A stretch of 64,000 nucleotides of DNA from a virus (lineage: Duplodnaviria; Caudoviricetes), in the IMG/VR virus record IMGVR_UViG_2837678835_000002, positions 346 to 64,345 of that record, one strand, 5' to 3'. This document shows positions 9,927 to 54,263 of the stretch, in pieces. The position numbers and the translations under genes are program-made. The first letter of the stretch is position 1. Each line of letters opens with the position of its first letter. The notes beneath the pieces are model-generated. The model did no database searches, was not told the origin of the DNA, and was given only the letters and a program-made list of their open reading frames with translations.

Positions 9927-10688
9927 ATGATGAACATGACGGTCTCGGTCAATCCCCCCGTCAACAAACCGGCACCACTGAGGAATGTGGCTGCCTTCAC
10001 CAGCCTGATCAATCGCGTCGTCGATCGTCGACCAGGCCTGCCGGGCCTTGCCTGCTTCTACGGGCACTCCGGACTCGGAAAGACCAAGAGCGCGATCTTC
10101 GGCGCCAACCGGCACCGCGCCGCATATGTCGAGTGCGGACAGATGACGACCGCCAGGTCGCTTCTGGTGTCGATCCTGATGGAACTTGGACTGCCGAAGC
10201 CGAAGGGCACGGCGACCGACATGCTCAACGAGATCGTCGAGATACTCGCCCGCGATCCCAGGCGGCCGCTGATCATCGACGAGGCGCATCACATCGCTCA
10301 CAAGGCCTTCGTCGATGTCGTGCGCGAGCTGCACGACAAGAGCGACGCACCGATCGTGCTGATCGGCGAAGAGACGCTTCCGAAGCATCTCGAAGCCTAT
10401 GAGCGCGTTCACAATCGGATGCTCGACTGGGTGGCTGCGGTGCCTTGCGACGCCGAGGACTTCGCGATGTTGGCTCGGACCGTGGCGCCACGGCTTTCCA
10501 TTGGCGCTGATCTTGCATCGGAGATGCTGGACGTCACCGCCGGAAATACCCGCCGCATCGTCGTGAACCTGGCGAAGGCCGAGGAGATCGCCGCCCGCGA
10601 CGGCCTGGACACGATCGGTCTCGACCAGTTCGGCGGGCGCGAAGCCATCCTCGGCCTGCGCGCGCCGATGCCGAGGGCAGCCCGATGA
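9927..10688 (+). CDS. Mu B-like AAA+ ATPase
   Basis: Walker A GHSGLGKT, Walker B LIIDEAHH, IVLIGEE; GAGGAG RBS before ATG 9927. Confidence 0.93.
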   Translation: MMNMTVSVNPPVNKPAPLRNVAAFTSLINRVVDRRPGLPGLACFYGHSGLGKTKSAIFGANRHRAAYVECGQMTTARSLLVSILMELGLPKPKGTATDMLNEIVEILARDPRRPLIIDEAHHIAHKAFVDVVRELHDKSDAPIVLIGEETLPKHLEAYERVHNRMLDWVAAVPCDAEDFAMLARTVAPRLSIGADLASEMLDVTAGNTRRIVVNLAKAEEIAARDGLDTIGLDQFGGREAILGLRAPMPRAAR

Positions 10689-19999: not shown

Positions 20000-21603
20000 G
20001 AGAACCAATTCTCCAAACAGAATGGGCAGAGCTGCGTCGTGAGGCGATGGCGGTGATGCCGTCCGAGGTCTCTGGCCTCCCGGACGTTCTCCTCACCTAT
20101 CAGCAGGAGCTGGTCGCCTCAGTCTCCAACTTCGCTTTGACCGTCACAGACAAGTCCCGGCGAATTGGCGCGACTTGGGGCGTCGGCGCGGCGGCTGTGC
20201 TCACCTCCGGCGCCAAGCGCTCCGCCGGCGGGATGGACACGCTCTATCTCGGCTACAATCTCGACATGGCGCGGGAGTTCATCGACACCTGCGCCATGTG
20301 GGCGCGGGCATTCAACCAGGCCTGCTCGAAGGTCCAGGAATATCTCTTCACCGAAGAAGGCGAGAAGGGCGAGGACCGGGCCATCCAGGCGTTCCGGATC
20401 ACGTTCGCTTCCGGTTTTGAGATCGCCGCGCTCTCCTCGAAGCCCCGCAGCTTGCGCGGCCGCCAGGGCTTCGTCATCCTCGACGAGTTCGCCTTTCACG
20501 ACGATGCCGAGGAGCTGCTCAAGGCGGCGATGGCGCTGCTCATCTGGGGCGGCAAGGTGCTGGTGATCTCGACCCACAACGGCGTCGACAATCCCTTCAA
20601 CCTGCTCATTCAGGAGATCCGCGAACAGCGTCGGCCCGGGAACGTCGTGCGATGCACTTTCGACGACGCCCTGGCGCAGGGCCTCTATCAGCGGATCTGT
20701 CTTATCCGCGGCCGCGAATGGTCGCCGGAAGCCGAGGCGAAATTCCGGGACGAGATCCGGGCGTTCTATGGCGACGGCGCGGCCGAGGAACTCGACTGTA
20801 TCCCGAGCCAAGGTTCCGGCGTCTATCTGACGTCGGCCCAGATCGAGGCGGTGATGACACCGGACACGCCGGTCTTTCGGCTGGCTTGTCCGCAAGGCTT
20901 CGAGCTGAAGCCTGACATCGAACGCGCGGCCTACGTCCAGGCATGGCTCGAGCTTATGGTCTCGCCGTGCCTTGAGACGCTCGATCGGCGCTTGCGCCAC
21001 CACTATGGCTTTGACTTCGGACGGTCGGGCGACCTCTCCGTCCTCGTGCCGATCGCCGAGCAGCGCAACCTCGTCCGGCGCGTGCCCTTCGTCGTCGAGC
21101 TGCGCAACGTGCCGTTCCGCCAGCAGGAACAGATCCTCTTCTGGATCGCGGATCGCCTCCCACGATTCGGCAACGGCCGCCATGACGCCCGCGGCAACGG
21201 CCAGTTCCTCGCCGAATACGCGATCCAGCGCTACGGCGCCCTGGCGATCGAAGCGGTGATGCTCTCCCAGGCCTGGTATCTGGAGAACATGCCGCCGATG
21301 AAGGCGGCGATCGAGGACCGGACGCTGCTGATTGCCCGCGACGCCGACCATAAGACCGATCTTCGCCAGATCCAGATGGTGCGCGGCATCCCGATGGTGC
21401 CGAACGACGCCCGCACGAAAGGCGCCGATGGGGGCCAGCGGCACGGCGACTTTGCCGTCGCGCTCTGCCTCGCCCATCAGGCCGCGAAGGCGGAGGTGAT
21501 GGAATACGGCTACACGCCCGCCTCCGCACTCGATGAAACGGGTGGCCTTGGATTTGCGAGCGGCGGGGGCAGCCTCAATACGGGAGACCGAACGCTATGG
21601 TGA
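19996..21603 (+). CDS. Large terminase (Mu gp28-like)
   Basis: LLTYQQ, KSRRIGATW, LRGRQGFVILDEFAFH, ISTHNG, GFDFGRSGDLS, HGDFAVA. Confidence 0.95.
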   Translation: MREPILQTEWAELRREAMAVMPSEVSGLPDVLLTYQQELVASVSNFALTVTDKSRRIGATWGVGAAAVLTSGAKRSAGGMDTLYLGYNLDMAREFIDTCAMWARAFNQACSKVQEYLFTEEGEKGEDRAIQAFRITFASGFEIAALSSKPRSLRGRQGFVILDEFAFHDDAEELLKAAMALLIWGGKVLVISTHNGVDNPFNLLIQEIREQRRPGNVVRCTFDDALAQGLYQRICLIRGREWSPEAEAKFRDEIRAFYGDGAAEELDCIPSQGSGVYLTSAQIEAVMTPDTPVFRLACPQGFELKPDIERAAYVQAWLELMVSPCLETLDRRLRHHYGFDFGRSGDLSVLVPIAEQRNLVRRVPFVVELRNVPFRQQEQILFWIADRLPRFGNGRHDARGNGQFLAEYAIQRYGALAIEAVMLSQAWYLENMPPMKAAIEDRTLLIARDADHKTDLRQIQMVRGIPMVPNDARTKGADGGQRHGDFAVALCLAHQAAKAEVMEYGYTPASALDETGGLGFASGGGSLNTGDRTLW

Positions 21604-23210
21604 AGGCCGCGATCGTCCGCTTCCAGGATCGCTGGGGCCGCTCGCCGGAAGCTTCGAGCCTCGGCTCGGAATTCGCAACGCCGCAGGAATGGGGGCCCCG
21701 TCGTGTGATCGGCGACGCCGTCGTCTCGGGGCTCGGTCCGGAGCGGCTTGCCGCAATCCTCCGCCAGTCGGCCGACGGCGATACGCGGTCCTATCTGACG
21801 CTCGCGATGGAGATGGATGAGCGCTACCTCCACTATGCGTCGCAGCTGCAGACCCGGCGCCTGGCCATCGAAGGCATCCCGGTCACGATCGAGCACGATG
21901 ACAAGGTGCCGAAAAAGATCGTCGACGCGGTGAACGACCTGGTCGAGGATACCCGCTTCGAGGAGATGGCCGGGACGCTGACCGATGCGATCGGCAAGGG
22001 CTATGCGGTCTCCGAGATCATCTGGGACTATGAGCGCGGTTTCCTTCGACCCGTCGACTACCGCTGGCGCGACCAGCGCTTCTTCCAATACGACGAGGCC
22101 ACCCGGACAGAACTGCGGCTCCGCGACAATGGCGACCCCCGCAATGGTCTGGCGCTGCCGGCGGCGAAGTTCCTCATCCATGAGCCGCGCACCCGGATGG
22201 GGCTGCCGATCCGCCGCGGCATGGCCCGGCCTGCGGCCTGGGCGTTCCTGATCCAGAGTTTTGCCCTCAAGGACTGGGCGAGTTTCGCCGAGATCTACGG
22301 CGTGCCGCTCCGCGTCGGCAAGTTCGGGCCGAACGCCTCGGAGGCAGACAAGCGGATCCTCCTGCAGGCGGTCCGCGCCATTGCCAACGACGCGGCCGCG
22401 ATCATCCCGGCCGGAATGGAAATGGAATTCGCCAAGGTCGAAGGGCAGCACGGTGCCGGCGTGTTCGGTGGGCTGATCGACTATGTCGACAAGCAGGTCT
22501 CCAAACTCGTGCTCGGCCAGACGATGACCTCGGACGATGGTTCGTCGAAGGCTCAGGCGACAGTCCACAACGACGTGCGTCTCGATATCCAGATGGCGGA
22601 CGGCAAGCAGCTCGGCCAGACAATCACGCGAGATCTCGTCGTGCCCTTCGTCGCGCTGAATTTCGGGCCGCAGGAGCTTTATCCGCGAGCCGTCTACCAG
22701 GTCGCTGCGCCGGAGGACCTCGAAGGGCTGAAGAATTACGTTACCTCTCTCGTTCCGCTGGGGCTGAAGGTTTCCCAGCGAGAGATGCGGGAGCGCGGCG
22801 GGCTTTCGGAGCCGGAGGATGGCGAGGAGCTGCTGAGGCCGGCAACGCTGCCAACGGAGGGCGGCGAGAAGGACAAAAAGCCGGAGGGACCGGCAGGCGA
22901 TCCGGCGAAAGGGGACGCGTCGAGGACGGCAAGACTCGCGGCCGTTGGTGCACCAGCTGGCGACGCGATCGACCAGGCGGTGGCGGAGGTGCTCGGCGAA
23001 GAGGATTGGGAGCCTCTCGTCGCACCGATGATCGCGGGGCTCGAGGCAAAGCTCTCCGCTGCGGCCGACCTCGATGAAGCGAGGGCGATCCTCGCAGCCC
23101 ACCTGGCGGCGATGGATCCGAGCGCGCTGGCGGAAAAGCTCACCCAGGCGGTCTTCGCCGCGCGGATCGCCGGGGAGGCGGAAGAGCCTCTGATCGACGG
23201 CGGAGCCTGA
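21597..23210 (+). CDS. Portal (Mu gp29/DUF935)
   Basis: DAIGKGYAVSEIIW, FAEIYGVPLRVGKF, SKLVLGQTMT, VHNDVR. Confidence 0.93.
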   Translation: MVKAAIVRFQDRWGRSPEASSLGSEFATPQEWGPRRVIGDAVVSGLGPERLAAILRQSADGDTRSYLTLAMEMDERYLHYASQLQTRRLAIEGIPVTIEHDDKVPKKIVDAVNDLVEDTRFEEMAGTLTDAIGKGYAVSEIIWDYERGFLRPVDYRWRDQRFFQYDEATRTELRLRDNGDPRNGLALPAAKFLIHEPRTRMGLPIRRGMARPAAWAFLIQSFALKDWASFAEIYGVPLRVGKFGPNASEADKRILLQAVRAIANDAAAIIPAGMEMEFAKVEGQHGAGVFGGLIDYVDKQVSKLVLGQTMTSDDGSSKAQATVHNDVRLDIQMADGKQLGQTITRDLVVPFVALNFGPQELYPRAVYQVAAPEDLEGLKNYVTSLVPLGLKVSQREMRERGGLSEPEDGEELLRPATLPTEGGEKDKKPEGPAGDPAKGDASRTARLAAVGAPAGDAIDQAVAEVLGEEDWEPLVAPMIAGLEAKLSAAADLDEARAILAAHLAAMDPSALAEKLTQAVFAARIAGEAEEPLIDGGA

Positions 23211-23214
23211 CGGC

Positions 23215-24426
23215 GTGGCGACCGAACTCCAGGCCCTGCCGTTCGCGGAGGCGATCGCCGCGCTTCAGCGGCGCGGCAAGCTCCTCAAATCGCAGTTCGC
23301 CTGGCAAGACGACTGGCAGGCAGACCATGCCGCAATGTTCACCGTTGCCAAGTCGACCGGCTTCGACATCCTTGGCGATGTCTTCGAAGGGCTTTCGAAG
23401 GCGGTAGCCGAGGGGCGGACGGTCGCCGAATTCTCGAAAGAGCTGCGGCCGCTCCTCGAGGCAAAGGGATGGTGGGGCCAGCAGCGTGTGGTCGACCCGC
23501 TGAGCGGCGAGGAGACGATCGCCCAGCTCGGCTCGACGCGCCGGCTGCAGTTCATCTTCGACGTCAATATGCGCGTCTCCTACGCGGCCCGTCACTGGTC
23601 AAGCTTCGAGCGCAACAAGAGGGCGCGGCCCTATCTCCGCTACGTCCACCTGGAAGGCCAGGAACACCCGCGGCTGCAGCATCAGGCCTGGCACAACATC
23701 GTGCTGCCGGTCGATCATCCCTGGTGGAATACCCATGCCTGCCCGAACGGCTGGGGCTGTCACTGCACCCTGCAGAGCCTTTCCCAGCGCGACGTCGACC
23801 GGCTGATGGCGCAAGGCGTGCCTCTGAAGTTCGCGGCGCCGGCGACGACGTCCCGCGACTGGATCAACAAGCGGACCGGCGAGATCCTCAAGGTGCCGGA
23901 CGGCATCGACCCGGGCTGGGCTTACAATCCGGGCAAGGCCGGTCGTGACGCCGTCGTGCGGGATGCTCTTTCCGCAAAGGTTGCCGAGGCGCCGGAAGAG
24001 CTGCGGCGATCGGCCATTGCAGACGTCGTTGCATCGGACGAGTTCGCGCGCTTCCTCGAGGATCCGCAAGGCAGTCTGCCGGTGATGGCGATCGGGAGGG
24101 AAATTGCGGACGCCCTCGGCGCTGACACGACGGTTGCCCTCCTGTCGGCCGACACCGTCGTCAAGCAGAAACAGCGCCATCCCGAGCTGACCATCGAGGA
24201 CTATCGGCGGCTGCCCGCCATCGGCATCGATCCGACCCTCGTCGTCCAGGACGGCGAGACCACCATGGTCTACGTCAAAGAGGACGACGATCGCTGGCTG
24301 CACGCGGCCGTGAAAGTGACCAGGTCCCGAAAGGCCGCCTTCCTGACGAGCTTCCGTTTTACCGGTGCGTCGAACATCCGCAGCCTCTTCAGGCGCGGTA
24401 TCAGGGTTCTGCTGGATAGAAGGTAG
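23215..24426 (+). CDS. MuF (gp30) minor head protein with C-terminal BECR/PBECR2-like nuclease domain
   Basis: MuF core (AMFTVAK, RPYLRY, HPWWNTHACPNGWGCHC, GIDPGWAYNPG) plus ~120-aa extension LSADTVVKQKQRHPELTIEDYRRLP...AAVKVTR...FLTSFR. Confidence 0.85.
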   Translation: MATELQALPFAEAIAALQRRGKLLKSQFAWQDDWQADHAAMFTVAKSTGFDILGDVFEGLSKAVAEGRTVAEFSKELRPLLEAKGWWGQQRVVDPLSGEETIAQLGSTRRLQFIFDVNMRVSYAARHWSSFERNKRARPYLRYVHLEGQEHPRLQHQAWHNIVLPVDHPWWNTHACPNGWGCHCTLQSLSQRDVDRLMAQGVPLKFAAPATTSRDWINKRTGEILKVPDGIDPGWAYNPGKAGRDAVVRDALSAKVAEAPEELRRSAIADVVASDEFARFLEDPQGSLPVMAIGREIADALGADTTVALLSADTVVKQKQRHPELTIEDYRRLPAIGIDPTLVVQDGETTMVYVKEDDDRWLHAAVKVTRSRKAAFLTSFRFTGASNIRSLFRRGIRVLLDRR

Positions 24427-25090: not shown

Positions 25091-25126
25091 TGAAACGCTT
25101 TGTCCGGGCCTGCAATGGTCCGGTCC

Positions 25127-26260
25127 ATGACAAGCACCGCAGCCCCATCCCTTTCTCCCGTCGCAACGGGCCAGGCAGGCATCGCCGTTTCGACCGGCGA
25201 CGTCGTCGTCGCCCTGGCTGCGGCTGCGGCGACGAGTGCGACGCCGGATTGGATCAAGATCGCGCCGCGCGGCCGGGTTTCGACCCGGGACGGCCGTTCC
25301 TATGCGTTCGATCCCGAAGCCCTGGCCGCTCGCTTCCAGGCGGACGAGGTCAAAGTCCCGATCGACTTCGAACACGCGACCGGCCATCTCGCGGCCAAGG
25401 GGCAGCGGGTCGATGCTGTCGGCTGGATTGAAGAGTTGCAGGCCCGTACCGACGGTCTCTACGGCCGTGTCGATTGGCTCGACACCGGCCGCGCCGCGCT
25501 GACCGCTCGCACCCACCGCTACCTCTCGCCGTCTTTCCCGCATGACGCCGCCGGCAATGCCGCGTGGATCCATCACGTGTCGCTGGTGACCGCGCCGGCG
25601 CTCTCGAACATGCCGGCGCTTGCCGGTGCTCACCTCCAGCAAACCGCAACGGACAATGTCATGAGCGACAAGATCGCGGCCGCCCTCGGGCTTGCCGCAG
25701 GAACCAGCGAGACCGCTCTTCTGTCGGCGATCGACGGCATGAAGAAGAAGCTCGACGAGGGCAAGATCACCACCGCCCTCGGCCTTTCGGCCGGTGCGGG
25801 CGAGACCGCGGTGCTTTCGGCGATCGCCGATCTGCAGAAGAAGCCGGAGGCGAATGGCGAGATCGCCACGCTCCAGGCGGCGCTCTCGACGACGCAGACC
25901 GAACTCGCTGCCTTGCAGGCGACGATGCGCAAGGGCGTGATCGATACCCTGCTCGACACCGCGCTGAAGGAAAAGCGCATCGTCCCCGCCCAGCGTGAGT
26001 CCTATGCCGCGCTCTGCGCGAGCGATGACGGGCTGAAGCAGGTGACGGCGCTGCTTGCCGCGACGCCGGCGGCGCTCGGCGCGTCCGGTCTCGACGGCAG
26101 GTCACCTGGCGAGGGCGGAGAGAAGGTCGTCGACCCCGTCGCGCTCGCCGCCAGGGCCAACGCCTACCTCTCGGCCCAGACGTCCGCCGGGAACGCGATC
26201 AGCTACATCGACGCCTTCGCCCATGTGCAGGCCGAAGCCGAAAAGGAGGCCGGCAAATGA
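25127..26260 (+). CDS. Mu I-like prohead protease / scaffold
   Basis: PIDFEHAT, AVGWI, YLSPSF, LVTAPAL. The C-terminal Ala-rich scaffold may have an internal start at ATG 25661, as for Mu Z. Confidence 0.92.
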   Translation: MTSTAAPSLSPVATGQAGIAVSTGDVVVALAAAAATSATPDWIKIAPRGRVSTRDGRSYAFDPEALAARFQADEVKVPIDFEHATGHLAAKGQRVDAVGWIEELQARTDGLYGRVDWLDTGRAALTARTHRYLSPSFPHDAAGNAAWIHHVSLVTAPALSNMPALAGAHLQQTATDNVMSDKIAAALGLAAGTSETALLSAIDGMKKKLDEGKITTALGLSAGAGETAVLSAIADLQKKPEANGEIATLQAALSTTQTELAALQATMRKGVIDTLLDTALKEKRIVPAQRESYAALCASDDGLKQVTALLAATPAALGASGLDGRSPGEGGEKVVDPVALAARANAYLSAQTSAGNAISYIDAFAHVQAEAEKEAGK

Positions 26261-26637
26261 GCTACGCCCTCAATCGCGACATCCGTTCTTTCGAAGCCGC
26301 CAGCGCGATCGGCGGCTACCTGATCGTCGCCGCCTCCGGCACGGCCGGTGCCATCGCGGCCGCCGTCGCCAAAAAGGGCTTCGGCGTTGCCGAGCGTGTC
26401 GGATCCGAGGCCGGCCAGATGTGCGACGTGACTGTCGCCGGCATGACCGAGGTGATCGCGGGCGGCGATCTCGACTTCGACGATCCGGTCACCGCCGATG
26501 ACTCCGGCCGCGCCGTCAAGGCGGTCGCCGTCGCCGGCGAGACGGTCCGCATCGTCGGCTTCATCCGCGCCGAGGGGACGACGGGAGACATCCTGCCGAT
26601 CCAGGTCGCGCCGAGCCTCCTCGTCACGCCGGCCTGA
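26257..26637 (+). CDS. Head decoration/cement protein (DUF2190-like)
   Basis: GGDLDFDDPVTADDSGRAV; position between protease and capsid. Confidence 0.75.
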   Translation: MSYALNRDIRSFEAASAIGGYLIVAASGTAGAIAAAVAKKGFGVAERVGSEAGQMCDVTVAGMTEVIAGGDLDFDDPVTADDSGRAVKAVAVAGETVRIVGFIRAEGTTGDILPIQVAPSLLVTPA

Positions 26638-26717
26638 CGGCTGGCGGTCCGCTTCACCCTTAAGCTCCTCGCGCAGCTCTTCGCTGGTGGAGCCTCGAAG
26701 AACAGGAATTCCGCCCG

Positions 26718-27689
26718 ATGGCACCGAACCGTCCGTTTCCCGTCGATCCGACCCTGACCGCCTTTGCGATCGGCTACCGCAACCCGGCCTATGCCTTCAT
26801 CGCCGACGACGTCCTGCCGCGGACGCCGGTGATGGGGGAGCGCTTCTCCTGGACCGAGTATCCGCTCGAGGAAGGGTTCCGCGTCGTCGACAACCGTGTC
26901 GGCCGGACCGGACGGGTTCCGCGGGTCGAGTTCACCGGCTCGCGCAAGGACTCCTCGGTCGAGGACTTCGGATTGGAGGCGCCGATCCCGAACTCGGACA
27001 TCCGCGAGGCCGAACGGATGAAGGCGCAGGGCCTCGGCAACTTCGACCCGCGTCAGCGCGCCGTGATGGGGATCGAAGACTACAACCAGATCAATCGCGA
27101 GATCCGCGTCGCAACCCTCGTCCAGAGCCCTGCGAGCTACCCGACCTCGCAGAAGATGGCTTTGTCGGGGACCGACCAGTTCTCCGACTACGACAATTCC
27201 GATCCGATCGGCGTCCTCAAGGACGTTCTGGACTCCACGCTCGTCTTCCGACCGAACCAGGTGACGATGGGCCATCGCGACTGGACGATCCTGTCCTCGC
27301 ACCCGAAGCTGATCAACGCCGTGAAGGGCGGACTGACGACGGAAGGAATGATCACCCGTCAGCAGTTCGCCGATCTGTTCGAGCTGAAGAAAGTGCTCGT
27401 CGGCGAGGCCTACATGGACGCCGCGAAATACGGCCATGCCGCCGACATCAAGCGGGTCTGGGGCGGCAACATGGTCTTCCAGTTCGTCAACCCGTCGGCC
27501 GACGTCAACGCGGGCACGATCACCCACGGCTTTACCGCCACCTACGGCACCAAGATCTCCGGCTCTCTGCCCGATCCGAACGTCGGCCTCGAGGGCGGCG
27601 AGACGGTGCGCTCAGGCGAGCGGATCAAGGAGCTGATCGTCGCGCCCGGGGTGAGCTTCCTGCTCCAGGACGTCGTCGCTCCGGCCTGA
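26718..27689 (+). CDS. Major capsid protein
   Basis: PFPVDPTLTAFAIGYRN...IADDVLP...SDPI; size and position. Confidence 0.9.
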   Translation: MAPNRPFPVDPTLTAFAIGYRNPAYAFIADDVLPRTPVMGERFSWTEYPLEEGFRVVDNRVGRTGRVPRVEFTGSRKDSSVEDFGLEAPIPNSDIREAERMKAQGLGNFDPRQRAVMGIEDYNQINREIRVATLVQSPASYPTSQKMALSGTDQFSDYDNSDPIGVLKDVLDSTLVFRPNQVTMGHRDWTILSSHPKLINAVKGGLTTEGMITRQQFADLFELKKVLVGEAYMDAAKYGHAADIKRVWGGNMVFQFVNPSADVNAGTITHGFTATYGTKISGSLPDPNVGLEGGETVRSGERIKELIVAPGVSFLLQDVVAPA

Positions 27690-27763
27690 TCCTGCGGACG
27701 TAGAGCCGGCCACGGCGGCGAGCCGCCGGCGCCCTTAGCGAGTTTCCTGAAAGGCTTTGAACG

Positions 27764-28348
27764 ATGGTGAAAGACACCTCCAAGACCAGGACGGCCAACA
27801 CCCTGCTGGCATCCACCACCGCGGCTTCGAACCCGCCTCCTGCTTCGCCGGCGACGCCCGCGGCGGCAAATCCCGCCGTCACCGGGACGCCTCCGGCCGA
27901 TGCGCCAGCGGTGAAGGTCACCACCGAGGCTGCAACGCAGCCGGTGCTCGAATCCGTCCAGACATCCACTGGTCCCACCGGCGAGCCGCGGTCGGCTGAG
28001 ATCGAGCCGCAGCTGCCTCGCTCCGCGGCGTTCCGGGCCCGGGCTGATGCCAGCTTCGATCCTGAATTCTCCGCCACCGGGCGTTCGACCTATGCCGGCA
28101 CGCTCCCCGCCAAGACGCGGGTCCTGGCGAGCGGCGAGCGGATCGAGATCTCGGCGGTGGCGCCCGACACCGAGACCCGAAAGTTCACCGCGGCAATCCG
28201 GATCCTGAAATCGAAGGTGCTCTACGAGCCCGGCGCCAAGGTGCCGCTGACGCGGATCGACTTCGAGGCCAAGCGCTCGCGGGGATCGATCCTCGAGCGC
28301 TTCTTCGAGGACGGCGAGGAAGCCGGCGAGACGGCTTCGGCGGGGTAG
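27764..28348 (+). CDS. Ala/Pro/Thr-rich hypothetical protein (stop codon inside the tRNA gene)
   Basis: ORF follows the capsid gene; TAG at 28346-28348 is tRNA positions 8-10. Confidence 0.65.
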   Translation: MVKDTSKTRTANTLLASTTAASNPPPASPATPAAANPAVTGTPPADAPAVKVTTEAATQPVLESVQTSTGPTGEPRSAEIEPQLPRSAAFRARADASFDPEFSATGRSTYAGTLPAKTRVLASGERIEISAVAPDTETRKFTAAIRILKSKVLYEPGAKVPLTRIDFEAKRSRGSILERFFEDGEEAGETASAG

Positions 28349-28412
28349 CTCAGAGGTAGAGCGCCGGACTCATAATCCGGTGGGCGCAGGTTCGATTCCT
28401 GCCCCCGCAACC
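28339..28412 (+). tRNA. tRNA with CAT anticodon (Met-type; Ile2 not excluded)
   Basis: GGCGGGG-TA-GCTCAGAGGTAGAGC-G-CCGGA-CTCATAA-TCCGG-TGGGC-GCAGG-TTCGATT-CCTGC-CCCCGCA-A-CC; 1:72 is a G:A mismatch; full CCA not encoded. Confidence 0.9.
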
Positions 28413-28418
28413 GAACCG

Positions 28419-28673
28419 CCGGTGGACGGTGCTTGGTGCCGCCGGCAACCGGCGCGGCCCGATATCCCAGGGCCGCGCCACCCGGATACCCGAGCGCGCT
28501 CGTCGACAGGCGCGAAACGGACGGACGGCTGCAGCGACGAGGCGGCCCTCCAGCGACGCGGATCGCTCAAGGCCTCCGGCCATCCGCTCCGATACCCAGG
28601 ACCGGTCCGGTACGGCTCGCAAGGCTCCCGGCACCCGATGGGGACCTTCGAAGGTAGGGGCGCAGCCCGCCGG
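28419..28673 (+). ncRNA. Candidate ~255-nt structured RNA between tRNA and ACP gene
   Basis: Nested long-range stems CCGGTGG/CCGCCGG and GGTGCCG/CGGCACC enclose several hairpins (see findings). Confidence 0.5.
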
Positions 28674-28704
28674 TCAATCATTCATTTCGCCAGGAGCAGC
28701 CCCC

Positions 28705-28956
28705 GTGTCCGCCGACATCGCCGACAAGATCTGCGCAGTCATCGCCAGACACCTCGCCATCGAGCGCGACGAGGTGAGCGAAGGTGCGCGGCTCGTTGAA
28801 ACCTTGGGCGCCGACAGCCTCGACATCGTCGAACTGGCGATCGAGCTCGAGGAGGAGTTCGGCGTTGAACTCAAGGACGAGGCGGTCGAGCACATCGTCA
28901 CCGTCTCCGACGTCGTCACCGCGGTCGAGGATGCGATCGCGAGGCGCGCGGCATGA
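28705..28956 (+). CDS. acpP: Phage-encoded acyl carrier protein
   Basis: AGGAG RBS then GTG; 83 aa, acidic; LGADSLDIVELAIELEEEFGVEL carries the phosphopantetheine Ser; ATGA overlap with the next gene. Confidence 0.9.
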   Translation: MSADIADKICAVIARHLAIERDEVSEGARLVETLGADSLDIVELAIELEEEFGVELKDEAVEHIVTVSDVVTAVEDAIARRAA

Positions 28957-29387
28957 CCAACTTTGCGACCCAGCAGGATCTCGTCGACCGCTTCGGTTCG
29001 ACCGAACTCGTCCAGCTTACCGACCGGGTCAACCGGCCCCCCACGACGATCGAGGCCACGGCTGTCTCGCAGGCGCTCGCGGACGCGTCGGCCCTCGCAT
29101 CGGGCTATGTCGGCAAGTTCTACAAGCTTCCGATGGCGTCGGTCCCGCAGGCGCTCGTCCGGGCGACGGCCGACATTGCCCGCTTCTACCTCTGGGGCTC
29201 CAAGGCCGAGACCGACGGTGAAGTCGAACGCAACTTCAAGATCGCGGTCGCCTGGCTGAAAGACATCTCGCGCGGTGTCGTCCAACTCGACGTCGAGGGT
29301 GTCGCGCCGGCGCAGCCCGAAGGCGGCTCTGTGCAGATCTCTGCACCGGAGCGTCGCTTCTCCCGCGCCAGCATGCGGGGGCTTTAA
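28953..29387 (+). CDS. Mu gp36-like head-tail adaptor (DUF1320)
   Basis: FATQQDLVDRFGSTELVQLTD...DIARFYL...AVAWLKDISRG. Confidence 0.9.
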   Translation: MTNFATQQDLVDRFGSTELVQLTDRVNRPPTTIEATAVSQALADASALASGYVGKFYKLPMASVPQALVRATADIARFYLWGSKAETDGEVERNFKIAVAWLKDISRGVVQLDVEGVAPAQPEGGSVQISAPERRFSRASMRGL

Positions 29388-29389
29388 CG

Positions 29390-29974
29390 ATGGCGGCAGC
29401 CGGTATTCGGATCACCGTCGACGACGCGGCCGTCATGGGCGCGCTTTCGCGGCTGGAAACGCGCGAGCGCGGTGACGCGATGAACGCGATCGGCGCCTAT
29501 CTGGTGACGGCGACCCAGCAACGCTTCGAGCGGGAGCAGGGGCCCGACGGCAAGCCCTGGCAGCGGCTTTCGCCGCGCACTGCCAACAAGCGGATCGGCA
29601 GGAGCCGTCGCGGCTACGAGCACATCCTCCGGGTCAAGAGCCGGCTCTATTCGAGCATCACCTATCGTGCCGATGCGGCCAGCCTGGCTGTCGGAACGAA
29701 CGTCAAATACGCCGCGATCCAGCAGCTCGGCGGTACGATGGAGCAGTCGGCGCGACGGCAGACGATCTACCAGCGCTACGACCCCAAGAGCGGCGAGATC
29801 GACCAGCGCTTCGTCAAGCGCTCGCGGTCCAATTTCGCCCGCGAGGTCGACGTCAAGGCACACACGATCACGATCCCGGCGCGGCCCTATCTCGGCATTT
29901 CCGACGAAGACCGTGCCGAGCTCCTCGAGATCATTGCCGACACCGAGCGCCGGGCGCTGGGAGGTGGCCGATGA
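29390..29974 (+). CDS. Phage virion morphogenesis protein (Mu G-like)
   Basis: RFEREQGPDGKPWQRLSP, GTNVKYAAIQQLGG, IPARPYLGIS. Confidence 0.9.
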   Translation: MAAAGIRITVDDAAVMGALSRLETRERGDAMNAIGAYLVTATQQRFEREQGPDGKPWQRLSPRTANKRIGRSRRGYEHILRVKSRLYSSITYRADAASLAVGTNVKYAAIQQLGGTMEQSARRQTIYQRYDPKSGEIDQRFVKRSRSNFAREVDVKAHTITIPARPYLGISDEDRAELLEIIADTERRALGGGR

Positions 29975-30399
29975 TCGTTGCCGAGATCGAGCAGCGGCTC
30001 GTCGAACGCTGCCAAGCCCACTTCGCGATCATCGCCGGCGCGATCGACCTTGCGACCGTCAAGGATCGGCCGCCGGCTTCGCCTGCCGCCTATGTCGTGC
30101 CGCTGCGCGACGTCAGCGCCGACAACAGCCGGATGTCCGACGTGCTGCAGCGGACCGAGATGGACGTCGGCGTCGTCATCATCGTCGAGAACGTCTCGGA
30201 CGCGACCGGTGCGGCGGCCGGGCAGGATCTCGAAGTGCTGAAGACCGCGGTTCGCAAAGCGCTCATCGGCTGGCAGCCGGCGAGTGCCGAGGATGTCGTC
30301 ACCCACGTCTCTGGCGAGCTGACCAGCGCCAAGGGCGGCACTGTCTGGTGGGAAGAGCAATTCGCGACCGCCTACTACCAAGAGAGCGAGGAGAGCTGA
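29971..30399 (+). CDS. Tail terminator protein
   Basis: PAAYVVP...ALIGWQP...WWEEQF; position. Confidence 0.75.
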   Translation: MIVAEIEQRLVERCQAHFAIIAGAIDLATVKDRPPASPAAYVVPLRDVSADNSRMSDVLQRTEMDVGVVIIVENVSDATGAAAGQDLEVLKTAVRKALIGWQPASAEDVVTHVSGELTSAKGGTVWWEEQFATAYYQESEES

Positions 30400-38363: not shown

Positions 38364-38737
38364 TGTCGCCCTTCGACCCCTTTGTCGGTCTTCCCTATGG
38401 CGTGCGCAGTCGCGGGCCGACGGCATACGACTGCTGGGGCCTGGTCGTCGAGGTCTATCGCCAAGCGCTCGGCATCCATCTTCCCCTCTTTGGCGATGCA
38501 GCCTCGGGCGCCGACGAAGACCGGCTATTCCGCGAGGAGCGCGATTTCGTGCGCCCGGTTGAGCGGGCCGAGCTCTTCGACCTCGTCCTGATCCGCGAGC
38601 GCCCTTGGCATATCGGCCTCTGGGCAGGGCGAGCCTCGATCCTTCACATGCCCTTCGAAGGCACTTCGATCATCGAGCCGGTGACCCGCTTTGGCCGCCG
38701 GATCGAAGGATATTATCGCCATGTCGAGCGTCTTTGA
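38363..38737 (+). CDS. NlpC/P60 tail-associated peptidase
   Basis: VGLPY...GPTAYDCWGLV...WHIGL...ILH. Confidence 0.88.
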   Translation: MSPFDPFVGLPYGVRSRGPTAYDCWGLVVEVYRQALGIHLPLFGDAASGADEDRLFREERDFVRPVERAELFDLVLIRERPWHIGLWAGRASILHMPFEGTSIIEPVTRFGRRIEGYYRHVERL

Positions 38738-41700
38738 TCTTGATCGACCCACGCGCCCCGTCGCCAAAAGGCGGCTGGATCTCAACGGGGAGGTTCTGAC
38801 CCCGGAAGACGCTGTGCTGGTCACAGCGGCAATGCACCCGCTGAAGACAGCCCACGAATTCGTGGCCGTCCGGACTGGCTCGAGCGTCGCCGAACTTGTG
38901 CATGAATGCGAGCGCGGCTGTGGCTCGCCCCGCATGGGTGCCAATGCCCATGTCACGATCAACGGCCTCGTTATTGCCAGGAGCGATTGGGACGACATCC
39001 GCGTCCTCAAGCGCGACCAGGTCGTCGTGCGAGCGGTTCCCGGCAAGGGAATGGGCAACATCCTGCGGTCGCTTCTGCAGATCGCCCTGGTCGTGCTCGC
39101 CGCAGCGATCGTCGGTCCGGCTGGTCTCGGGATCGCAGGAACCGCCATCGGGACGATCGTCACCGGTGCCATAGTTATCGGCGGCTCGTTCCTTCTCAAC
39201 AGCCTCTTCCCGCCATCACAGCAGAAGGCGCAGGACGAGGAGAAGTTCTATTCAATCTCGTCGAGGCAAAACACCTCGGCGAAGTGGCAGCCGATCCCGC
39301 TGATGCACGGCAAGCAGCGCATCGCGCCGAAATACGCCTCGAGTCCCTACACGAGCTTCGTTGGCAACGACCAATATGTGACGATGCTCTTCGTCTGGGG
39401 GCATGGTCCGCTCGACGTCAACGACTTCAAGATCCGGCAGACCTCCCTCGATCTCTACGACGACGTCGAGATCCAGCATCGCGCCGGCTATCCGGACGAC
39501 GAGCCACAGACGCTCTATCCGACGGAGGTCGTGCAAGAAGAGCCCAATATCGAGACGTCGAAGGATTTCGGTCCTCATGAAGTGACCGGCGCCGCAAACA
39601 GCGTGCGGGACGAGATCGACTTCATTGCACCGGGCGGGATCTACGAGGTCGTCGAGGGTGAATATGACGAGCAGAACGTCGACTTCGACATCTACAAGCG
39701 CGCTGCAGGCAGCAGCGACCCTTGGGTGTTCGAGCAGTATGTGAACCTCGTCGGCGACGACAGCAAGCCGATCCGCAAGACAGTCACGATCGACAAGGAT
39801 GCTGCCGTTCAACAGGAATACCAGATCAGACGTCTCACCCGTGACGACGACGATACGCTGCACTCGCTCAGCGTCACGCTGACGGCCATTCGGTCCTTCC
39901 GCGCTGGGGATCCGCCGATCGAATACGATGGGCCGTTGGCTTACACCGCGATCCGCATCCGCGGGACGAAGCAGCTGAACGGCATCATCACCGATCTCAC
40001 CGGTGTCGCGACCAGTCGCGTGAAATCGTGGAATGGGACCGAGTGGGTCGACGATCAGCCGTCCCGCAACAACGCTGATCACTTCCGGCATATCCTGCAG
40101 GGGCCGGGCAACAAGCGGCCGGTTCCGAATTCGCGGATAGACCTTCCGACCATCGAGGCATGGGCAGAGTTTTGCACGTCGAAGGGGTTTACCTTCGACA
40201 TGTACTGCGACTTCAAATCGAGCGTCCGCGAAACCCTCGCCGCCTGCTGTGCGGCGGGCCGCGCCGTCCCGGTCTTCCGCGATGGCCGGTGGTCCGTGGC
40301 GATGGAGGACGAATATCAGCCGGTCGTCCAGCATTTCACGCCACGCAACAGCCGGGATTTTTCCTGGTCGCAGGTCTACGCGGAGCAGCCTCATGCACTG
40401 CGCGTCAAGTTCGTCAACGAACGGAAGGATTGGGCCGAGGACGAATTCCTCGTCTACAATGACGGCTATTCCCGACTGAATGCGACACTCTTCGAGCAGG
40501 TCGAGTTCCCCGGCATCACCAATCCGGAGGTCATCTTCAAGATGGCCCGCTACCGGCTGGCGGAGAGAAAGCTCCGTCCGGCGACCTACAAGCTGACGAC
40601 CGATTTAGAGCATCTCATCTGCACGCGCGGCGACAGGGTTCATGTCTCCCACGACGTGATCAAGAAGGGCCTGTCGTCAGGCCGCGTCGTTTCGGTGGTC
40701 AATCGTGCGGTGACCCTCGACGAGCCCGTCACAATCCAGGACAGCCTCAACTATGGTCTGAGGATCCGCTCGAACGACGGCACGTCGCGGGTCGTGAACG
40801 TCGTCCGAACGATCGGCACCTCGAAGACGATCACGATCGCGAGCGGGTTCACACCGCCAGCTGTCGGCGAGCTGGTGATGTTCGGACTCCGTGGCCAGGA
40901 GGCTGGCACTTACCGGATCCTCGCGATCCAGCCTGGCTATGAACTGTCCGCCGACATCACGCTCGTCGACGACGCCCCCGGCATCTCCATCGCCGATACC
41001 GGCCCGATCATCGGCGACCCTGTCGTTCAACCGCCGACGCCACTCGATCAGCTGAAGCCGCGAAACCTGCGAGTGGTGTCGCAGGTCATCACCGAGGGCG
41101 GGGCGGTCTCGCGGATCCACCGCCTCTACTGGACAATGCCGTTCGGGCCCGATGTCGCTTCCTTCGAAGTGTCGGCCGTGAAGACCAACAAGTCGATCCT
41201 CGTCACCGTGGATGCCGGACAGCTCTATGCCGACTTTTCGGATCTTTCCGCCGGCGACTGGACCTTCGCCGTCCGCGCCAAGCTGACGGACGGCAAATGG
41301 ACCCCTCCCGCCATTCGTGCCGAGACGATCACCAGCGTCAGCAACCCGCTGGGTATCGTCGCCGATCTGGCGCTGGCGACAGGCGGGGTGACCTTTACGG
41401 GTACCGATGCCGAGTTCGTCTGGTCGCACGTCTTTCCGGGGCAGGAGCGTGCCCTCTACGCCCGCAACCTCGTGCGGGTCTATGACACCGCCACGAACAC
41501 GCTGTTGCGCGAGACATCGACGACCGAGCCGCGCTTCGTCTACACGATCGCCGCCAATCGGCTGGACAACGCACCATTCGGCCGGGCAGCCAGTCGCGCC
41601 TTCCGCGTCGAGGTCGCCGTCGTCGACGTCTACGGCAACCTTTCCCCGTACCTTGCGCTCGCTGTTTCCAACCCGGCGCCGGCGGCGATCACGCCGAACG

Positions 41701-44700
41701 TCATCCAGAGCTATGGGAACGTCACGGTCACCTGGACGCTGCCAAGCGAGCCGGACATCCAGGGCGCCTATCTCTGGGCCAGTCCAACCAACGGCTTCGA
41801 CCCGCTCGTCACGGTGCCGTTCTACGACGGCAACGCCAATCTCTCCATCGTGCCGGTGCCGATCGGTGAGAAGCGATACATCCGTATTGCAGCCTACGAT
41901 GCCTTCTCGCGGTCGGGCTTGGCGATCAGCCAGCAGATCGAGGTCACATCGCTCAATCCGGACAATGTCGACCTTACGCCGCCGGCGGTGCCGACCGGTC
42001 TCACGATCATTTCGGTGCTGGACACGGACGGCACGGCTCTCGTCACCGCGGGCGTCGATGCCAATACGACCGACGACGATTTCGCGTCGTTCGAATTCGA
42101 GCTATCGATCGCTGGCGGCAATTTCGTTTCCTACCCCGGTTATCGGAACACCCGGCAGTGGCGGCTTGCGCCAGGCAGCGCGATCGCCGTGCAAGTCCTC
42201 GCCCGGGACACCCACGGCAATCCCTCGGATTATTGCATACCCAAGCTCCACACGGTCATTCGGGACTTGGTCGCGCCGGCCAAACCGACATGGCCCGATG
42301 CCGGCGCCGTATCGACCTCTTCGGGCGCCGTCTGGCTGGACTGGGACGACAATGTCGAGACCGACTTTGCCAAGTACGAGGTCTATGAGAGCGACAGCGC
42401 AACGACGCCGGACGCCGCCGCCAAGCCGATCGCCGTGGTGCTTGCATCGTCTTTCGTCCGGACCGGTCTTCCGGCCGAGACGACGAAGAACTATTGGGTC
42501 AAGGCCGTCGACACCTCGGGAAACAAGTCCGCGTTCTCTGCCCGCAAGGTTGCGACAACGCCGGTGGCTTTTGCGGTCACGGCAGCTGCGATCGACGCCG
42601 CCATCAATCAGACAGCCTACGCGAACTCGATCGCTGCCCCGAAGATCGCCACCAGCGCCCCCGGAGCCGCCACGAGCGGCGATCCGAGCTATGTCAGCTA
42701 CAACGGGCGCCTCTATCAAAAGAACGCTGCCGGCAGCGCTTATGTCGCTCTCAACGACGCCTCGCAGATCGGCGGCATCATTCAGGCCGCACAGATTGCC
42801 GGGATAGCTGCTTCGCAGGTCACTGGACAGCTGACGAATGCGCAGCTGGCAGCGATCGACGCGGCCAAGGTCTCCGGGCAACTGACCGCGGCGCAGATCG
42901 CATCTGTCAATGCGGCCGCGGTGGCAGGGCAGCTTACCGCCTCGCAGATTGCCTCGATCGCTGCGACGCAGGTCACCGGCCAGATCGTCGCCGCACAGAT
43001 TGCGGATGCAGCGCTCACGGCGGCGAAATTCGCAGCATCGATCAGGCCGGTGGAGATCGTCTCTTCACTGCCCTCGAGCGCCAACACAGTCGGGCGCGTC
43101 GTGATGCTCACGAGCGACGGCAAGCTCTATCGTTACACGTCCGCCGGCTGGAGTTCGGCGACCGCGGCAGGCGACATTTCGGGACAGCTTTCGGCGGCGC
43201 AGATCGCCTCCCTGGCAGCCTCGCAGGTCACCGGACAACTCTCGGACGCTCAACTCGGCGCCATTTCAGCCGCCAAGGTTTCGGGACAGCTCTCCGACGC
43301 GCAACTCGCAAGCATCTCGGCGACCAAGCTGACCGGGCAGATCGTCGCAACGCAGATCGCCGATGCCACCCTCACCGCGAACAAACTCGCTGCGGGGCTG
43401 AAGCCCGTTGAGATCGTTTCGGCTCTTCCGTCATCGGGCAATGCGCCGGGGCGGGTCGCCTTTCTGTCGAGCGACAACAAGCTCTATCGCTACACGTCCT
43501 CGGGCTGGAGCGCGGCGACTGCCGCGCCAGACATATCAGGGCAGCTTGCGGCAGCGCAGATCGCCTCCCTGACGGCTTCTCAGATCACCGGTCAATTGTC
43601 CGACGGCCAGCTAGCGGCGATTTCAGCAGCCAAGGTGTCAGGTCAATTGACCGCGTCGCAGATCGCATCGGTGAACGCCGCCGCGGTTTCGGGGCAGCTG
43701 ACCAACGCACAGATATCCGACATTGCAGCCTCGAAACTGACCGGCACGATCGCTTCCGGGCAGATCGCCGACGCTGCGATCACCGCGGCGAAGTTCGCTT
43801 CCGGACTTCGGCCGGTCGAGATTGTTTCGTCGCTGCCCTCGAGCGGCAACCTCGAGGGGCGCGTCGTCGTCATGGGCGGCGTGCTATATCGCTACACGTC
43901 CGGCGCCTGGACGAAGTCCGTCGCATCGAGCGACATCTCGGGACAGATTGCCGCCGCACAGATCGCATCGGTCGCTGCTTCTCAGGTCACGGGACAATTG
44001 TCGGCCGCGCAGATCGCCTCGGTCGCCGCAGCCCAGGTGACCGGCCAGATTGTCGCGACACAGATCACCGACGGCGCTGTCACGACTGCGAAGGTTGCCG
44101 CAGGTGCGATCACCGCCAATGAAGTTGCTGCCGGCGCGATCGTTGCCGGCAAGATCGCTGCCGCGGCTGTAACCACTGCCAATCTCCAGGCGGGTGCGGT
44201 CACTGCCACGGAGCTGGCCGCCGGCGCCGTGGTCGCGGGCAAGATCGCCGCCGGCGCTGTCACGGCCGGAACGATCGTTGCAGGCTCGATCACCGGCGAT
44301 CGCCTGGCAGCCAATACGGTCACAGCGGCGCAGATCGCGGCGAATACCATCACTGCCGCCCAGATCGCCGCAGGGGCCATCTCGGCGACCGAGATCGCCT
44401 CCAACGCGATCACGGCCAAGCAGCTCGTCATCACCGATTTCGAGAACCTCGTCCCGAACGGCAATTTCTCGCAGGCCGGCATCCTCGCCGACATGTTCCT
44501 GGCGAGCGCCGGCGTGGCGGAAACCACCACCGCCTATCAGGGCGGCAACGCGGTCTTCATGCCGGCGCAGGGCGGCTATGCCGTCCAGACGCGCGACTAC
44601 ATCCCGGTCATTGCCGGCTCGGCCTACTACGTCGAGATGGCGATCAAGGCCGCGACGGCGACCGTCACGGCGAATGGCCAGACCATGCGGCTGTTCTGGT

Positions 44701-54192: not shown

Positions 54193-54263
54193 GGCTTTCG
54201 GCGGGCGGGTATCGCAGCTGGCCCGGCCGTTGCGGCCGGGCCCATCCATTTCAGGAGACGACG

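Follow-up and report, generated by a model that had tools for sequence, protein, structure and literature searches.

A conserved, covarying phage RNA motif absent from Rfam 15 in the head operon of a Mu-like prophage

The window considered here is a stretch of 64,000 nucleotides (nt) from a Caudoviricetes virus (IMG/VR record IMGVR_UViG_2837678835_000002, positions 346 to 64,345), with a GC content of 65% and the head module of a Mu-like prophage on its plus strand. Between a tRNA-Met gene and an acyl-carrier-protein (ACP) gene of this module, positions 28591-28675 are shown to be a member of a conserved, covarying phage RNA family that is absent from Rfam 15. The element consists of a core of 76 nt (28600-28675) preceded by a single-stranded leader, GAUACCC followed by AG (28591-28599, with GAUACCC at 28591-97), and is co-oriented with the late head genes. 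An earlier note on this DNA had described 28419-28673 as one nested RNA structure of ~255 nt; the interval does contain a conserved structured non-coding RNA, confined to the 76-nt core plus leader in its final third. About 70 distinct members of the family are found in public viral contigs. It is a strongly covarying, complex RNA family, new to Rfam 15 and located in an intergenic niche of Mu-like phages, and it has two unexpected traits, a tRNA-style end made of a purine and CCA and an exclusive association with initiator-type tRNA-Met genes.

The RNA family and its covariation

Relatives of the element were gathered at increasing distance. A DNA search of 61 related genomes with the window region gave an 88% match to 28591-28683 in a prophage of another genus (G034) and an 84% match to 28602-28673 in a prophage of another family (G055), both in Mu-like head modules, and compensatory changes were already visible in the three-way alignment of these two with the window. 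An exact gapped pattern search returned three genome records and four metagenome contigs. The 17-mer GGTACGGCTCGCAAGGC matched 96 viral stretches, about 85 of which have a common wider architecture; ten loci were excluded by eye as chance or coding matches (L031, L032, L035, L064, L082, L093, L094, L117, L069, L070). The architecture is closed by a helix of 6-7 bp, P1, 70-130 nt downstream and of very diverse sequence, each P1 having its exact complement downstream. Seven loci are without a closing helix by a simple P1 rule, and four of them (L038, L066, L105 and L119) were excluded from the alignment search, which covered 74 members after exclusion of near-identical duplicates (L092 is included, and L099 is interrupted by the contig end).

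A covariance model, R1, was built from 13 aligned members of the window's subtype, including the window sequence itself, with the structure drawn by hand. In this seed 98.8% of cells are paired and 11 of the 25 pairs have changed on both sides, a level reached by none of 500 shuffles; when the 3' partners were slid, pairing fell to 34-52%. Across the 74 members, 97.8% of pair cells are standard, compared with 77.0% when shuffled and 38-55% when slid, and 20 of the 25 pairs (312 cells) have changed on both sides; these figures come from an alignment fitted to R1 and so biased toward the structure, but P1, P2 and P5 still vary freely and remain complementary. In P2a, further changes, from G-C to U-A and from U-G to C-G, are contributed by the more divergent members taken from whole genomes. 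R1 recovers all expected loci, with 33.7-106.7 bits for members other than the window, which itself matches at 28585-28681 over model positions 1-98 (90.3 bits, E about 1e-27). The search for covarying homologues that had been proposed for this interval thus found relatives whose helices are held by compensatory changes.

The family plan begins with an AAUACCC leader and a short spacer that mostly ends in A. P1 is followed by an invariant U and by a 4-bp helix, P2, which encloses an invariant UAC/C internal loop and the GNRA-capped helix P2a. In the 3' part, a variable middle leads to the 4-bp helix P5, whose triloop reads NNA; an invariant G separates P5 from the 3' strand of P1, which is followed by an unpaired purine and often by CCA. 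The arms are arranged as in a cloverleaf, with P1 as the acceptor-like closing stem. In the window, P1 is formed by 28600-05 and 28670-75, the unpaired U lies at 28606, P2 pairs 28607-10 with 28628-31, UAC occupies 28611-13, and P2a pairs 28614-17 with 28623-26, with CGCAA between its strands and a GCAA cap. The middle is made of P3 (28634-36/28640-42) and P4 (28644-47/28652-55), P5 with a GCA loop follows (28658-61/28665-68), and the unpaired G is at 28669. The copy in the window therefore has every feature by which the family is recognized: P1, P2, P2a, P5, the U after P1, the UAC/C loop and the G before the 3' strand of P1. Its tail after P1 is AAUC, with no encoded CCA. The single-sequence minimum free energy (MFE) fold of 28600-28675 reproduces exactly the helices of the covariation model.

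Members of the family have in common the leader, P1, P2/P2a, P5 and several of the junction bases. Their middle part is modular and takes at least three common forms (23, 20 and 16 members, and 15 unclassified, by a rough text rule). ATACC is found within 15 nt before P1 in 46 of the 74 members and variants of it in another 17. Several roles for the leader were considered and dropped. The upstream CCAG does not covary, by eye, with P2; pairing with P3 or with the GGG of a loop was rejected, P3 covarying locally; and outer helices enclosing leader and element are no longer than in mismatched controls. A promoter function was likewise set aside, as there is no conserved sequence upstream of the leader and no promoter-like site was called.

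The element belongs to no Rfam 15 family, Mu-gpT-DE (RF03012) included. A scan of window positions 27000-30000 at E<=10, a check proposed in the earlier note, left it unmatched and reported only the tRNA. There was no match to the element in five related loci at E<=1, in eight loci at E<=10, or in 15 loci with the Mu adaptor gene gp36 at E<=0.05, and at the gathering score no ribozyme class was found in 14 + 12 viral loci (26 loci, about 237 kb). Altogether the scans returned only tRNAs, one match to the suhB/mmgR small RNA (sRNA) family 7 kb away and chance-level matches elsewhere. The suhB/mmgR-family match, above its gathering score with 47.1 bits, is located at 12835-12919 of L052, ~7 kb from the element of that locus. 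Four 16-mers of the core gave no match in the papers searched, and none of six terms for its context occurs in the preprint bioRxiv 10.64898/2026.10.21.760802; the supplements of two papers may list the motif (PMC10690425; PMC5737381).

The distribution of the family is patchy. In a sample of the host's order, R1 matched nine of 151 genomes, once per genome, one of these being a weak partial match of 22 bits; in a phylum-wide sample of 151 genomes it matched the window's genome and one other sequence, at 25 bits and without the P2 core. Nothing was found with R1 in four prophage loci of the same genus. When a 1.3-kb query from the window was compared with cultured-phage records, the matches were to tRNAs, apart from a single short one that lay outside the element, and a 98-nt member compared with cultured or deposited phage records matched the uncultured MT835534.1 (83% over 77 nt) and one further record by chance.

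Initiator-type tRNA-Met and the slot upstream of gp36

A survey of 79 non-redundant loci, roughly 0.7 Mb, revealed a tRNA gene in nine. All nine are tRNA-Met(CAU) on the strand of the element, and eight lie within 600 nt of it. In six loci 22-44 nt lie between the end of the tRNA and the conserved GGUAC of the core, so that the tRNA adjoins the leader; of the other three, one lies 78 nt downstream of GGUAC, that of the window 196 nt upstream and one 1.3 kb upstream. Because the tRNA stands directly before the leader in the six loci, tRNA 3' processing would define the 5' side of the element there. Release of the 5' end by tRNA processing had been suggested for the window, and the suggestion suits these six other loci; it is not supported for the window, where 187 nt, including a hairpin and unconserved filler, lie between the tRNA and the core downstream of it.

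A mismatch at position 1 is a mark of bacterial initiator tRNAs. In all nine tRNA-Met, A72 faces a base 1 that is mismatched or pairs weakly, and A73 follows in eight; they resemble the host initiator tRNA and differ from the host elongator and from the host's third CAU tRNA. They are located in the window, L025, L026, L037, L077, L084, L087, L116 and L146, with A73 missing only in L087. The tRNA-Met of the window (28339-28412, plus strand; called by ARAGORN, and by Rfam RF00005 with 70.2 bits) is initiator-like, with a G1-A72 mismatch, seen as a non-standard first pair in the RF00005 match, with A73, and without a complete encoded CCA. Its acceptor stem equals that of the host initiator (C24:1901) except at base 1.

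The 3' end of the element has a related character. Of the 74 members, 16 have a CCA that begins after a single intervening base 3' of P1; each of the other 11 offsets has one to three, with 1.1 expected per offset. The base that adjoins P1 on its 3' side is a purine in 63 members. A purine followed by CCA after P1 is the layout of a tRNA 3' end.

Coding-like open reading frames (ORFs) within 3 kb are mainly on the strand of the element in 63 of 74 loci (six without data and five contrary, by a crude measure of coding strand). Downstream, the commonest neighbor is the gp36 adaptor (PF07030 in 14 and phrog_195 in 14 of 53 ORFs), followed by DNA primase (5/53) and scattered genes for small terminase, portal and tail terminator. 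Upstream ORFs include small FluMu_N proteins (8/54), capsid families (about 12), primase (4/54), head proteases and tail tube or sheath proteins. In at least 23 of the 79 loci the upstream ORF stops no more than 45 nt before GGUAC, right at the leader (stop within about 20 nt), and the distance from the element to the next start is tens to hundreds of nucleotides.

Within the order sample, 15 genomes carry a gp36 gene, in 17 loci; the element lies no more than 400 nt upstream of gp36 in four of these genomes, and a single genome has just a tRNA-Met at that place. The slot is filled in several ways: by the element only (G034, where a homologue of a window hairpin, the leader and P1 without an insert precede gp36, with neither tRNA nor ACP gene); by a tRNA and then the element (the window and G055, where tRNA-Met is followed immediately by the element and then gp36); by the element and then a tRNA (L025); by a tRNA-Met only (L146); by a GC-rich structured stretch with a hairpin and an AAUACC leader, as in prophages of the window's genus; or by nothing, some gp36 loci having no gap at all. 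Other GC-rich stretches that open with a leader-like ATA(A)CC motif occur at several gp36 loci. Such ATA(A)CC(C) motifs, just upstream of gp36 and without an R1 element, were noted in L155, L157, L151, L152 and L159, and in L155 a hairpin resembling P5, with the loop UCA, is present as well. Their recurrence hints at a wider family of modules composed of a leader and a structure.

The window locus and the interval before the ACP gene

The head genes of the window, all on the plus strand, were assigned from the ORF list and from Pfam and PHROG matches: a Mu-type portal gene (21597-23207), the Mu F gene (23215-24423), a protease gene (25100-26257) and a scaffold-like gene (26257-26634), followed by the major head protein gene (26718-27686). 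After it lies ORF194 (27764-28345), which encodes a capsid-side protein of 194 amino acids (aa) with no Pfam or PHROG match and has 76-77% DNA identity in the four same-genus prophage loci. Its last codons are overlapped by tRNA-Met, and its C-terminus diverges from the same-genus loci exactly where the tRNA starts; relative to those prophages, the tRNA takes the place of the 3' end of ORF194. A gap of 293 nt lies before the ACP gene, which has an AGGAG ribosome-binding site (28692-96), starts with GTG at 28705 and stops at 28954-56 (Pfam PP-binding, 1.8e-11; PHROG acyl carrier protein, 3.1e-16). The end of this gene overlaps the start of the Mu gp36-type head-tail adaptor gene (28953-29384; Pfam PF07030, 1.8e-31), after which comes a tail completion protein gene, also on the plus strand. 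The ACP gene thus lies inside the head operon, a position at which G034 and G055 have none. Farther downstream, past the tail genes, one open frame spans 3337 aa (38691-48704) and has a coding-like GC content of 0.82 at third codon positions.

The gap had been described as non-coding, and by composition this holds. GC at the three codon positions is 0.70/0.69/0.76 in frame 0 and likewise flat in the other two frames, compared with 0.73/0.36/0.87 in the ACP gene, and a protein-coding reading was rejected on this ground; nor does the PHROG match of the ACP gene gain anything from an in-frame extension back to 28429. No promoter-like or terminator-like sites were called in 26500-29500, and no second copy of the gap exists in its own genome.

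The proposed ~255-nt fold was built on complementary strings, all of which are present. CCGGTGG (28419-25) and CCGCCGG (28667-73) could form seven pairs, one of them G-U; GGTGCCG (28435-41) is a perfect complement of CGGCACC (28629-35); and GCGGAT (28558-63) complements ATCCGC (28582-87). However, the 293-nt gap folds no better than shuffled sequence (z +0.15): its MFE is -134.3 kcal/mol, compared with -135.1 +/- 5.3 for 200 dinucleotide shuffles, 109 of which fold as well, and for the minus strand z is +0.62. Neither long-range pairing holds, because their 3' partners belong to local helices supported by covariation, CCGCCGG being divided between P5 (28665-68) and the 3' strand of P1 (28670-75), and CGGCACC between the 3' strand of P2 (28628-31) and P3 (28634-36). 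The pairing of GCGGAT with ATCCGC is not upheld either, as it falls in a stretch with no detectable homologue and with a fold z of 0.04 (28480-28599). The smaller structures fared better. ACCT-TCGA-AGGT (28644-55) is P4 and the GCAA-capped C-GCAA-G hairpin (28618-23) is P2a, both parts of the conserved element. Folding z-scores, which had been proposed as a check, are uninformative here, because the true 76-nt element scores z -0.07 even with an MFE fold identical to the covariation model; they are therefore unfit for rejecting structured RNAs in DNA of 65-70% GC.

The perfect 10-bp GC hairpin at 28451-28479 (plus strand; stem strands 28451-60 and 28470-79, with the 9-nt loop GATATCCCA) was also borne out, with an MFE of -25.6 and z -3.98, and none of 200 shuffles was as stable. 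Its stem is conserved and its loop variable in five comparators, the four same-genus loci and G034. The hairpin does not qualify as an intrinsic terminator, since the stem is followed by ACCCGGAT and there is no U run; it probably ends or protects the upstream message as a 3' stem-loop.

A motif resembling the leader recurs in the interval, GATATCCC at 28461-68 and GATACCC at 28485 and 28591, and the recurrence of RATACCC exceeds chance: two copies lie within 107 nt, and the whole 64-kb window contains 10 on both strands, compared with 4.0 +/- 2.0 expected. Further RATACCC copies in apparent intergenic gaps are located at 10545-10551, before a gene at 10685, and at 54207-54213, between 54192 and 54264 on the minus strand; R1 found no element at either.

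The first leader-like copy, GATACCCGAG (28485-28494, plus strand), comes directly after the hairpin, and the matching position of G034 runs straight into P1. In the window it is followed by 96 nt of lineage-specific, GC-rich filler (28495-28590, plus strand), for which no BLAST match in related loci at E<=1 and no R1 match was found, and for which neither homologue, R1 nor fold supports a function. Because two leader copies flank these homologue-less 96 nt, the locus looks like a mosaic of tRNA, hairpin, leader, filler, leader and element. The four same-genus prophage loci share ORF194, the ACP gene and the hairpin region (a 46-56-nt match with 84-89% identity), and have no called tRNA and no element. 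After the hairpin and an AAUACC leader they carry a different GC-rich region of ~200 nt before the ACP gene (L003, about 1195-1445 on the minus strand; L004, 1188-1440; L022, 1305-1560; L005, 1968-2215), and this region, judged on four sequences only, is a candidate for a second RNA of a related kind. An internal hairpin of the region is exchanged for another sequence in L005.

Excision, its alternatives and known systems

The arm order, the U after the stem, the purine-CCA tail, the tandem tRNA and the lack of a promoter or terminator of its own lead us to favor, tentatively and at slightly less than even confidence, the reading of the element as a co-transcribed tRNA-like module that is excised by tRNA-processing enzymes. 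It would be transcribed within the late head operon, co-oriented with its genes and without its own promoter or terminator, and then excised by the host tRNA-maturation machinery, with RNase P acting at the 5' end of P1, an endonuclease cutting in the A/U-containing leader, and the 3' end being trimmed to purine-CCA, or receiving CCA in members that do not encode it. Such a cut would separate capsid-side from connector genes in the message and would also free a stable tRNA-like RNA of 76-130 nt. In the window, the module may have arrived together with the tRNA or beside it, the closest prophages having neither. Because the element is repeatedly paired with initiator-type tRNA-Met, the two may act together in translation or against host defenses directed at tRNA.

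RNA cleavage at such junctions has precedent, because published ribozymes occupy the same niche and hammerheads cut prophage polycistronic RNA. According to one report, the strongest association of hammerhead and twister ribozymes is with genes of Mu-like phages (PMC10085705), and another describes hammerheads that flank genes in prophages of related bacteria and cut polycistronic RNAs of ~2 kb in vitro (PMC3088659).

Several observations weigh against excision as a tRNA-like module. The element is not recognized as a tRNA: RF00005 gives no match on it at E<=10 and ARAGORN does not call it, both reporting only the genuine tRNA-Met, with which it shares arm order and the purine-CCA tail only. 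It is without the signatures of the tRNA D- and T-loops. The acceptor/T stack of a tRNA is 12 bp, whereas P1 and P5 make about 10 bp with an intervening G. CCA is encoded in only 22% of members and not in the window copy, and the CCA and tRNA counts (16 of 74 members and nine of 79 loci) overstate independence because family members are related. If the 5' leader were nothing more than a segment removed by RNase P, its conservation would be unexpected, and excision by itself leaves unexplained the invariant internal loop and GNRA cap, which suggest a specific tertiary fold or a partner; such a partner of leader, loop and cap may be the phage initiator tRNA or a protein. The element is dispensable for head assembly, because the closest prophages are without it. 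The argument for an interchangeable cleavage module rests on the literature, because no known self-cleaving ribozyme was found in the 15 sampled gp36 loci of the host's order.

A rather unlikely alternative is that the element is a new class of self-cleaving ribozyme, cutting in or near the leader in the Mu-like niche of hammerhead, twister, twister-sister, pistol and hatchet. Its compact multi-helix junction, with an invariant U, the UAC/C loop, the GNRA cap, the G before the 3' strand of P1 and the A closing the P5 loop, would fit such a role, as would the conserved single-stranded leader just 5' of P1 and the tandem arrangement with another cleaved RNA, the tRNA. It also sits between Mu head genes, and it is with genes of Mu-like phages that bacterial self-cleaving ribozymes associate most strongly (PMC10085705). 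However, scans of the window region and eight other loci at E<=10 matched no Rfam ribozyme model, a catalytic core is not recognizable, and self-cleavage leaves the purine-CCA tail unexplained.

It is quite unlikely that the element remains in the message as a cis-acting regulator or stabilizer, such as a protein- or ligand-binding structure or a nuclease barrier, which would set the expression ratio between abundant capsid-side and low-copy connector proteins. Its typical position, after genes for major head, FluMu_N or tail tube and sheath proteins and before adaptor genes, accords with this, together with the upstream stops close to the leader in at least 23 of 79 loci and, in the window, an element that ends 16 nt before the ribosome-binding site of the ACP gene. 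Yet the distance to the next start is variable, no terminator or platform for sequestering a Shine-Dalgarno sequence is seen, the element also adjoins DNA primase genes, and neither the positional peak of CCA nor the pairing with tRNA is explained.

Very unlikely is an element that acts at the DNA level or selfishly, without RNA function, as a recombination hotspot or a miniature mobile insert travelling with tRNA genes. Patchy presence among close relatives, two leader copies arranged like a duplication around the 96-nt filler, and modular swapping of the middle part are compatible with it. On the other side, the element is single-copy per genome and locus, has no flanking outer repeat or helix beyond chance, and keeps its helices through compensatory changes across very different P1 sequences. 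Its G-U pairs occur on the sense strand only (for example U-G in 72 of 74 members at one P2a pair and in 20 of 74 at one P5 pair), and on the other strand they would be A-C mismatches.

Scarcely tenable is the reading of all of 28419-28673 as one nested non-coding RNA of ~255 nt freed by tRNA 3' processing: the complementary strings exist and the single-sequence MFE fold of the gap uses some of the listed pairings, but covarying local helices occupy the long-range partners, the fold is no better than shuffled, the middle 96 nt has no homologue, and the interval is not a unit, because the hairpin abuts the element in G034 and the tRNA abuts it in G055.

A broader proposal, which we regard as fairly improbable, is that the motif is either a new self-cleaving ribozyme class or a new tRNA mimic acting with the phage initiator tRNA. 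As a mimic it could usurp the initiation of translation or weaken host nucleases directed at initiator tRNA, and on the same proposal the AAUACCC leader would be a cleavage or recognition site common to a superfamily of leader-plus-structure modules upstream of Mu gp36.

Among known systems, tRNA-like RNAs derived from longer transcripts include mascRNA from MALAT1, the stable RNAs in the tRNA cluster of phage T4 and the tRNA-like structures of plant viruses. The element likewise has an acceptor-like stem, a purine with CCA (in 16 of 74 members), an invariant U, cloverleaf order and a tandem tRNA. It differs from a tRNA in that its D-like arm has a conserved 17-nt insert with a GNRA hairpin, its T-like arm is 4 bp with a 3-nt loop, and it has a conserved 5' leader and no conserved anticodon-like loop. 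GOLLD and other large phage non-coding RNAs, to which the interval had been likened, are phage-borne and near tRNA, as is the element; the likeness did not stand, as GOLLD gave no Rfam match at E<=10 in 27000-30000, and the conserved unit is 76-130 nt rather than several hundred.

The Mu-gpT-DE motif is a structured RNA downstream of the major head gene in Mu-like prophages. Its model has 53 positions and a cut-off of 49; it has no match in window positions 27000-30000 at E<=10 nor at the element in the window's genome (G000), G034 or G055, where its best score is 17 bits and lies elsewhere, and over five genomes its best is 27.8 bits, in G004, with no match at the locus in any of the five at E<=10. 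Mu-gpT-DE is Rfam RF03012 (PMC7657543). A survey of IMG/VR produced 8495 candidate structured RNAs, tRNA-like ones included; none is named with the features of the element in the accessible part of the paper, and the motif could be listed by number in its supplements (PMC10690425). The ribozymes of Mu-like phages share the niche of the element, intergenic regions of phage operons (PMC10085705; PMC3088659), and have a similar size and junction-rich architecture, whereas the element matches no Rfam ribozyme model and is without a known catalytic core. Mu-like phage intergenic regions are described as the richest known source of bacterial self-cleaving ribozymes, with the reason for cutting unexplained (PMC10085705). 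Were the element excised by RNase P, phages of bacteria would have a counterpart to tRNA-like 3'-end processing; were it to cut itself, it would be a new ribozyme class.

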